Shown here: piece after piece, positions 23,480 to 26,227 of the stretch
Numbering within the stretch: the stretch's first letter is position 1
How the letters are laid out: every line of letters begins with the position of its first letter
From: Myxococcales bacterium
GTDB lineage: Bacteria; Myxococcota_A; Polyangia; Polyangiales; DASUME01
NCBI GenBank assembly: GCA_047601445.1
Contig: JASGJH010000001.1
Coordinates: 384,001-448,000 of the forward strand
Reading direction: 5' to 3'
Length of the DNA: 64,000 nt
Translations under genes and position numbers: made by a program
The notes under the pieces: generated by a model
What the model was told of the DNA's origin: nothing
The model's input: the letters and a program-made list of their open reading frames with translations, nothing else
Database searches by the model: none

Positions 23480-23543
23480 GCTGAGTACCGGCTCTTCGAC
23501 CCAACCAGGCGGGTAGTGCCACCGCCTGGGTCGAGCAACAAGA

Positions 23544-23578
23544 AAGGCCGCGCTCATCGAGCGCGGCCTTCTTCGTTT
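23544..23578. terminator. Bidirectional intrinsic terminator between convergent csp and panD
   Basis: AAGGCCGCGCTC-ATC-GAGCGCGGCCTT 12-bp stem, A-rich on the left and T-rich on the right. Confidence 0.85.
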
Positions 23579-23631: not shown

Positions 23632-24036
23632 TCAGGCGACGATTTCGAGCTTGCGCGGCATCTGCGGGCCGGCGCGCTCCTGGTCGATCTCTACGATGCG
23701 GTTTTTGCTGTCCACGAACACGACCTTGGGCTCGTGCTTGCGGGCCTCTTCGACGTCCATATCGCCGAAGGTGGCGATGATGCAGAGGTCGCCGGGCTTG
23801 TTGAGGTGGGCCGCCGCGCCGTTGATGCAGATGACGCCCGAGCCGCGGGGGCCACGCAACGCATAGGTCATTAGACGGGTACCCTGGGTGACGTTCCACA
23901 CGTGGACCGCCTCGTGCTCCAGGATGTCGGCCGCCTCCATGAGGTCGGTGTCGATGGTGACGCTGCCTTCGTACTCAAGGTCCGCATGGGTGATGGTCGC
24001 CCGGTGGATCTTGGACAGGAACATCTGCTTTCGCAT
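23632..24036 (-). CDS. panD: Aspartate 1-decarboxylase
   Basis: [17 protein letters not shown] cleavage site, TYA and INGAAAH; AGGAG SD. Confidence 0.97.
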
Positions 24037-24049
24037 CGGTACTTCTCCT

Positions 24050-24087
24050 CTCCGTGGCGTCCCATCGTGGATGGGTACACCCGGAAG
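24050..24087 (-). ncRNA. Putative pan RNA motif (single stem, two bulged A) in the panD 5' UTR
   Basis: UUCCG-GGUGU-[A]-CCCAUC-CAC-GAUGGG-ACGCC-[A]-CGGAG, immediately followed by SD AGGAG. Confidence 0.75.
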
Positions 24088-24327
24088 CCTGTGCACCTGG
24101 ATCTAGAAAATCGCGCGCTCTGATTACTGGTATGTGGGCGGGAAGGCAACCGTTTTTGGGACGGCCTATCCGGCCACTCACATTGCTATAGCGTAGCGAG
24201 ACGATTACTGGACTGCAACGGGGTCCCGTGGGGTAGCGGGGCCCACACCTGACTAGCCCGGGGGAGCTAGAACGGGCGCGTTAGACGAGTCGTTTCTGAC
24301 GTTTAGCGAGCAATCCGCCAGTCGGTC

Positions 24328-26144: not shown

Positions 26145-26227
26145 GCCGGGGTGGCGAAATGGCAAACGCGGGCGACTTAAAATCGCCGGCCGGCGACGGC
26201 ATGCGGGTTCGAGTCCCGCCCTCGGCA
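26145..26227 (+). tRNA. tRNA-Leu (anticodon TAA), CCA not encoded
   Basis: Acceptor GCCGGGG/CCTCGGC+A, D-loop TGG, anticodon arm GGCGA-CTTAAAA-TCGCC, long variable arm, T-loop GGTTCGAGTCC. Confidence 0.97.

Follow-up and report, generated by a model that had tools for sequence, protein, structure and literature searches.

The window, by which we mean the whole 64,000-nt stretch of Myxococcales DNA analysed here, carries a stand-alone panD gene on its minus strand, preceded by a hairpin of the pan family at 24086-24050. The features of the locus are listed below; helix strands, loop and start codon were read from the sequence.

23543..23571, called on both strands: terminator-like hairpin 3' of panD
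23632..24036, minus: panD, aspartate 1-decarboxylase, stand-alone (TIGR00223, 154.1 bits; cut-off 106)
24036-24034, minus: AUG of panD
24049-24045, minus: Shine-Dalgarno-like AGGAG, 8-nt spacer to the AUG
24050..24086, minus: whole hairpin of three helices (outer; middle, 5 bp with U-G at its centre; inner)
24086-24082, minus: outer helix, 5' strand UUCCG
24081-24077, minus: middle helix, 5' strand GGUGU
24076, minus: bulged A of the 5' strand (A in 25/25 panD and 41/41 panB hairpins; an A is demanded by the selecting descriptor)
24075-24070, minus: inner helix, 5' strand CCCAUC
24069-24067, minus: loop CAC (3 nt)
24066-24061, minus: inner helix, 3' strand GAUGGG
24060-24056, minus: middle helix, 3' strand ACGCC
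24055, minus: bulged A of the 3' strand, followed by C (conserved; demanded by the selecting descriptor)
24054-24050, minus: outer helix, 3' strand CGGAG, containing a GGAG
24097-24093 with 24042-24038 (span 24038..24097), minus: weak predicted outer helix enclosing hairpin and Shine-Dalgarno sequence (minimum-energy fold; uncertain)
24190..24195, minus: predicted -10 hexamer TACGCT, 17-nt spacer (sequence pattern)
24213..24218, minus: predicted sigma-70-type -35 hexamer TTGCAG (sequence pattern)

The helices, the bulged A24076 and A24055, and a Shine-Dalgarno sequence starting at the next base had all been described in the original prediction; each was confirmed in the sequence, and the hairpin also in the fold. 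Folded alone, the 37-nt hairpin reached -22.9 kcal/mol (z = -4.93; 0 of 200 shuffles were equally good), its outermost U-G pair being unpaired in the predicted structure, and z was only -1.73 when it was folded within 111 nt of context. The predicted enclosing helix was present in several members of the genus, without covariation. A descriptor of the hairpin shape that allowed no mismatch matched 2 of 1500 70-nt windows drawn at random from the genome, and the bare descriptor matched 178 places across the genome, so that shape alone is not diagnostic.

From the -35 and -10 hexamers, transcription is predicted to start near 24183, upstream of the hairpin, as the original prediction requires. 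In the 130 nt preceding the hairpin, a TTG..TANNNT pattern was present in 20 of the 25 hairpin-bearing panD leaders and 7 of the 41 panB ones, compared with 4 of 2000 random windows, and a stricter promoter-consensus scan called no promoter upstream of the window panD. Contigs from RNA libraries of relatives spanned the hairpin and the panD start in four of four runs, ending by 24167; they carry no information on strand, start or level and the libraries may contain DNA, so they were not counted as evidence. The 9-mer CCAGTAATC (minus strand) occurs twice in the window, at 24203-24211, inside the predicted promoter spacer, and at 24122-24130; several leaders of the genus retain a similar word, and the 9-mer is a possible DNA site. 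The upstream gene (25551-24328, minus strand) is a lipoprotein-like open reading frame whose match to the gliding motility protein CglB is weak (50 bits; cut-off 200). A tRNA gene lies at 26145-26227 on the plus strand (RF00005, 58.1 bits), and a similar tRNA is found 3' of panD in a related genome (G002).

Using a strict descriptor, we found the hairpin in 25 of 33 panD leaders of the order: 24 of 28 readable leaders, two of the 30 loci in the first set being too short to read, and 1 of 5 further leaders. The corresponding count for panB leaders was 41 of 58 (18 of 28 in one set and 23 of 30 in the other, where one additional descriptor match was left out as chance), compared with 6 of 600 random 250-nt windows. 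The bulged adenosines, which had been expected upstream of related pan genes, were kept in every one of these hairpins, as the descriptor that selected them demands. Among the 61 genomes sampled in the order, the hairpin was present in 54 (48 by the strict descriptor and 6 by eye) and absent from 5, and 2 were not assessable. Alignment of 24 panD hairpins gave a 13-pair structure with 94% of cells paired (38-49% in slid controls) and two-sided change at 10 pairs, a covariation that is partly circular because the rows were selected by a pairing descriptor; RNAalifold yielded the same structure on the panD leader alignment. The central pair alternates, being U-G in 18 and C-G in 5 of the 24. As an independent test, a model built from the panD leaders alone matched the leader hairpin in 22 of 30 panB loci. 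About half of its weaker matches that were inspected (5 of L053-L062) did not precede pan genes and were set aside as chance, as were four more.

The host genome contains a second pan hairpin before panBC (L031; C1:1040249-1040220, minus strand), with an outer stem of 1 bp and a z of only -1.04 when folded alone; none was found before coaX in this genome. The presence of the hairpin at both panD and panBC makes it a regulon element that covers both branches of pantothenate synthesis. A control specific to a stand-alone panD, as originally envisaged, is at odds with this copy and with the many hairpins in panB leaders. Among the 25 panD leaders, the Shine-Dalgarno core began 1 nt past the 3' bulged A in 15, where it forms the 3' strand of the outer helix, and was no more than 8 nt from the bulge in 24. 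The described position at the ribosome binding site stands, in the window as an AGGAG next to the stem, and is weaker for panB, since 29 of 41 panB leaders have no Shine-Dalgarno core beside the stem, which in most of them ends some 10-25 nt ahead of the apparent start codon. In one panD leader (L027) the hairpin stands 241 nt upstream of panD, with repeats of about 13 nt between them.

In its original description, the pan RNA is a stem bearing two bulged As that lies ahead of pan genes, usually in tandem; seven rows of the published alignment are single-stemmed (PMC2864571; Weinberg et al. 2010). The Rfam model of this motif, RF01749, has two stems over 92 positions and a cut-off of 36.2 bits. 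This model had been suggested as a check on the hairpin, and it gave no match at any threshold in the window or the leader, none in the host genome, none above cut-off in 141 phylum genomes and none in 20 phylum leaders. Because it needs two stems, these misses were not taken as refuting pan identity. Like the pan motif, the window stem has one bulged A on each strand, 5 bp apart, a G-C below the 3' bulge and covarying pairs, and lies upstream of panB, panC or panD; like the second stem of the motif (P2), it adjoins the Shine-Dalgarno sequence and has a central U-G. In contrast, the hairpins of the order are single (a second hairpin within 250 nt was found in 0 of 66 leaders), their first inner pair is mostly C-G and not U-A as in 36 of 36 canonical hairpins, and panD and panB each have middle-helix sequences of their own. 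One leader (L028) bridges the two forms, with the canonical CCUGG/CCGGG middle helix of P2.

A model built from the 36 canonical hairpins ranked the window hairpin first in 67.8 kb and in the exact register, but at no more than 17.7 bits (E 0.1), leaving the panB copy unmatched; in 28 loci of the order it gave 9 matches, every one on a leader hairpin. A first relaxed descriptor, which demanded a C-G first inner pair, missed canonical hairpins and was dropped. In the phylum, 34 of 80 panB leaders scored as hairpins, mostly single and of the canonical P2 type, compared with 3 of 600 random windows and 0 of 80 reverse complements, a count that is not blind because the score was set after those leaders had been viewed. 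The proposed pan-type identity is borne out by structure, covariation and the leaders of panD and panB relatives, and we are highly confident that the hairpin is a real single-stem pan RNA, a variant of the motif overlooked by RF01749. Since the model overlooks this form across the whole phylum, the regulon is much wider than catalogued. The statement that pan RNA is single-stemmed in deltaproteobacteria proved too broad: only the seven published rows are single, and several tandem rows carry accessions that we take to be deltaproteobacterial.

Across all hairpins, the loop ranges from 3 to about 40 nt, and what is fixed is the two bulged As with their flanking pairs. In three panD leaders (L460, L461 and L456, from G099, G118 and G166), the 3' bulged A doubles as the first base of the AUG, and a Shine-Dalgarno-like sequence lies within the stem-loop. 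The panB leaders of family f53 (L160, L173, L188 and L204) show by eye a variant with a G-C first inner pair, which the phylum descriptor missed. In six Megasphaera leaders (L218, L251, L262, L267, L281 and L285), the gene after the pan hairpin encodes a PanS-like BASS transporter (NF047939; scores of about 300 bits in the 2 of 6 scanned, below the cut-off of 400), which would extend the pan regulon to uptake; these loci did not separate the binder candidates, because panB and panC are present there too. At L247, a pan hairpin precedes a Rossmann-fold protein, presumably PanG-like, for which NCBIfam gave only weak dehydrogenase matches. A record titled Chryseobacterium (L214) has a Bacillus-type pan leader and a PanB that falls within Bacillaceae, and is possibly mislabelled.

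The occurrence of the hairpin followed that of CoaX, the type III pantothenate kinase. Of the five genomes of the order without the hairpin, two (G012, G023) gave no CoaX match and three have a strongly diverged CoaX of 102-176 bits; in all 54 hairpin-bearing genomes it exceeded 230 bits. PanC also splits off these five by a smaller margin, being not found or at 229-264 bits versus at least 275 for full-length matches. PanB does not separate them; G034 has a PanB of 338 bits without the hairpin and without the CoaX loop described below. In a sample of 151 genomes of the class Bacilli, 138 have panC, 120 of them with CoaX and 18 without. RF01749 matched at E<=0.05 in 102 of the 120 CoaX-bearing and 0 of the 18 CoaX-less genomes; with the descriptor, 11 of the 18 CoaX-bearing genomes that RF01749 had missed were gained and none of the CoaX-less ones, for a total of 113/120 versus 0/18. 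The 18 CoaX-less Bacilli form two clades only, both on long PanB branches, so the Fisher P of 5.6e-13 is far overstated, the comparison resting on two events. Elsewhere in the phylum, G101, G133 and G127, in which CoaX is not found or diverged, have no panB hairpin, and the family of G101 and G133 lacks it throughout; G120 and G158 keep the hairpin despite a moderately diverged CoaX.

Within CoaX, the presence of the hairpin was tracked by a non-catalytic loop, GPGxKTG, whose G-x-K/R-T-G corresponds to residues 91-95 of the host protein, encoded at C1:3345877-3346497 on the minus strand. Among 50 aligned CoaX sequences with retained catalytic motifs, G-x-K/R-T-G was present in 29 of 29 hairpin-bearing genomes (3 of which were initially listed as negative and moved once their panD leaders showed hairpins) versus 5 of 21 hairpin-less ones. 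Identity outside the loop was no lower in hairpin-less genomes (0.40-0.58 versus 0.36-0.63), so overall divergence of CoaX does not explain the loop signal. The columns that best tracked the RNA were K93, G91, P90, R254, R104, T94 and R166. Lineage-weighted scores reached 0.64 for K93 and 0.62 for R104 of CoaX, 0.50 for the best PanB column (with two basic columns at 0.42) and 0.34 for the best PanC column, the CoaX and PanB scores coming from different genome sets. In a prospective set of 30 genomes, K/R93 was found in 12 of 12 hairpin-positive versus 13 of 18 panB-negative genomes, a difference that is weak by itself; 10 of the 12 positives had the strict motif, the exceptions being GPGIRSG and GKKLKTG. 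For the 18 panB-negative genomes, panD was sought in 15 and found in 11, and its leader had the hairpin in 8 of 8 loop-keepers (scores 7.0-9.5, one by eye) and in 0 of 3 loop-less genomes.

In total, all 49 hairpin-bearing genomes examined had K/R93, and the hairpin was seen in 0 of 20 genomes that had lost K/R93 (15 from the alignment and 5 from the prospective set), hairpin-less status being judged from one or two leaders per genome. The converse is loose: the full loop persists in 5 of 21 hairpin-less genomes, and also in G061 and G162, where no hairpin was found. Family f43 is divided, with loop and hairpin in G099 and G118 and neither in G079, G126 and G161. G065 and G071 likewise carry a CoaX without the loop. 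In the predicted model of the host CoaX (pLDDT 94.1), residues 87-96 form a loop without regular secondary structure. The solved chains 2H3G, 9B78 and 3DJC, which we take to be CoaX of B. anthracis, M. tuberculosis and Legionella, keep the loop, and 3BEX/2GTD, presumably from Thermotoga, are without it.

We propose CoaX here as a new candidate binder of pan RNA. Support for it comes from the structure, its covariation, the position at the ribosome binding site, the two copies per genome, and the co-occurrence with CoaX and its GPGxKTG loop. G-N5-A-C recurs on both strands of the hairpin, a pseudo-twofold element that would be suited to a dimer; the motif description in PMC2864571 likewise suggests a dimeric protein as the binder and names none. 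On the sequence evidence, CoaX probably binds the hairpin and represses translation when pantothenate is ample, the sign of the effect being taken from the published coaX deletion in M. tuberculosis. Loading with pantothenate would favour binding, and the CoaX dimer would use a basic surface, formed in the host protein by K93, R104, R166 and R254, to recognise the two bulged As in their pseudo-twofold arrangement. Bound CoaX would block entry of the 30S subunit at the panD and panBC leaders, and this block would shut the beta-alanine and pantoate branches together once pantothenate is ample. For the broader claim, that CoaX is a widespread RNA-binding regulator of pan hairpins in Bacillota, myxobacteria and other phyla, acting via the GPGxKTG loop and nearby basic residues to repress genes of pantothenate synthesis and uptake, we see a chance slightly better than even.

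CoaX could instead be needed indirectly, its loop binding a partner such as PanB, and the partner or the complex binding the hairpin. PanB does have co-varying charged columns and long branches in both CoaX-less clades, and an interaction of CoaX with PanB is suggested in PMC11626117; however, basic residues make up four of the top seven CoaX columns, which would suit an RNA surface, and the PanB of G034 scores normally in a genome with neither hairpin nor loop, so that we regard an indirect role as unlikely. It is distinctly improbable that PanC or PanB is itself the hairpin-binding autoregulator and that the link to CoaX stems from shared history: 18 Bacilli keep panB and panC without CoaX and without the hairpin, and the PanC column score stays low, although panC occurs in all 102 Rfam-positive Bacilli and PanC is missing or lowest-scoring in the five hairpin-less genomes of the order. 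For a putative RNA-binding-like fold of PanC, no paper was found in the open-access literature. PanD was rejected as the binder, since three genomes rated 100% complete (G030, G050 and G060) have the panB hairpin and no panD was found in them using the window's protein as query.

The anatomy of the hairpin appears to favour a protein-bound translational operator over a riboswitch or a DNA site. An aptamer that binds pantothenate, beta-alanine or CoA directly would fit the presence of the hairpin in leaders of all pathway branches and of the Megasphaera transporter, and no CoA riboswitch is known according to a passage in PMC9971707. Such an aptamer is nevertheless very unlikely, because there are few fixed unpaired positions (the two bulged As), the loop varies widely, the alternative helix found when a competing fold of the window leader was sought was 13 kcal/mol worse, and a sensor that works by itself would not be expected to follow a loop of a protein. 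If the imperfect inverted repeat were a DNA operator for a transcription factor, the many relatives in which the hairpin begins 9-15 nt past the predicted -10 element would be accommodated; however, the central pair alternates between U-G and C-G, spacer length varies freely, reverse-complement leaders gave 0/80, and the window hairpin is about 100 nt from the predicted promoter yet adjoins the Shine-Dalgarno sequence. We give this reading almost no credence.

No ligand or binder has been assigned to the pan motif since 2010, and how the genes of vitamin B5 synthesis are controlled is for the most part unexplained. In line with the original prediction, we found no established ligand or binder in the literature, and within open-access PMC and bioRxiv no paper was found that ties CoaX to pan RNA. 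The relevant passages of PMC5670726 and PMC4342826 only list pan before panBCD, and PMC4607514 reports a pan-like RNA in M. avium. Taken alone, the RNA extends a known family only modestly; the importance rests on the assignment to CoaX, which names one protein, one loop, one residue and a 37-nt RNA as testable candidates. If CoaX is the binder, the orphan pan motif would be solved, CoaX would be the missing feedback regulator of vitamin B5 synthesis, and a core metabolic kinase would double as an RNA-binding feedback regulator, with a bearing on CoA biology and on vitamin B5 production strains. B. subtilis is reported to possess CoaA as well as CoaX, whereas staphylococci have neither kinase and lactic acid bacteria have CoaA instead of CoaX (PMC11487621); B. 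subtilis coaX mutants were viable in culture in that study. Binding of pan RNA by CoaX would give a reason for B. subtilis keeping CoaX beside CoaA. The distribution in lactic acid bacteria may conflict with some rows of the published pan alignment, which we take to be Enterococcus.

M. tuberculosis offers the closest physiological comparison. CoaX of this organism binds pantothenate, and deletion of coaX raises PanB, PanC, PanD and PanG together with their transcripts (PMC11626117; Kahne et al. 2024). That paper demonstrates that a pseudokinase controls depupylation of PanB, leaves the mechanism of the transcript rise unknown and favours an account based on proteolysis; it suggests that CoaX touches PanB, proposes no RNA target and explains the transcript rise differently from a CoaX-RNA model. 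RNA binding by CoaX would account for the rise. The M. tuberculosis protein resembles the one proposed here in being a pantothenate sensor that lowers pan enzymes, and the solved chain 9B78 keeps the loop (EPGVRTG); it is a pseudokinase, whereas the host CoaX has G, the usual kinase residue, at position 8. Metabolic enzymes such as PyrR moonlight as RNA-binding regulators. CoaX differs from PyrR in its fold (ASKHA-type) and in its RNA, and its RNA binding is a proposal; like PyrR, it would be an enzyme-fold protein that binds a metabolite of its pathway and reads a leader hairpin.
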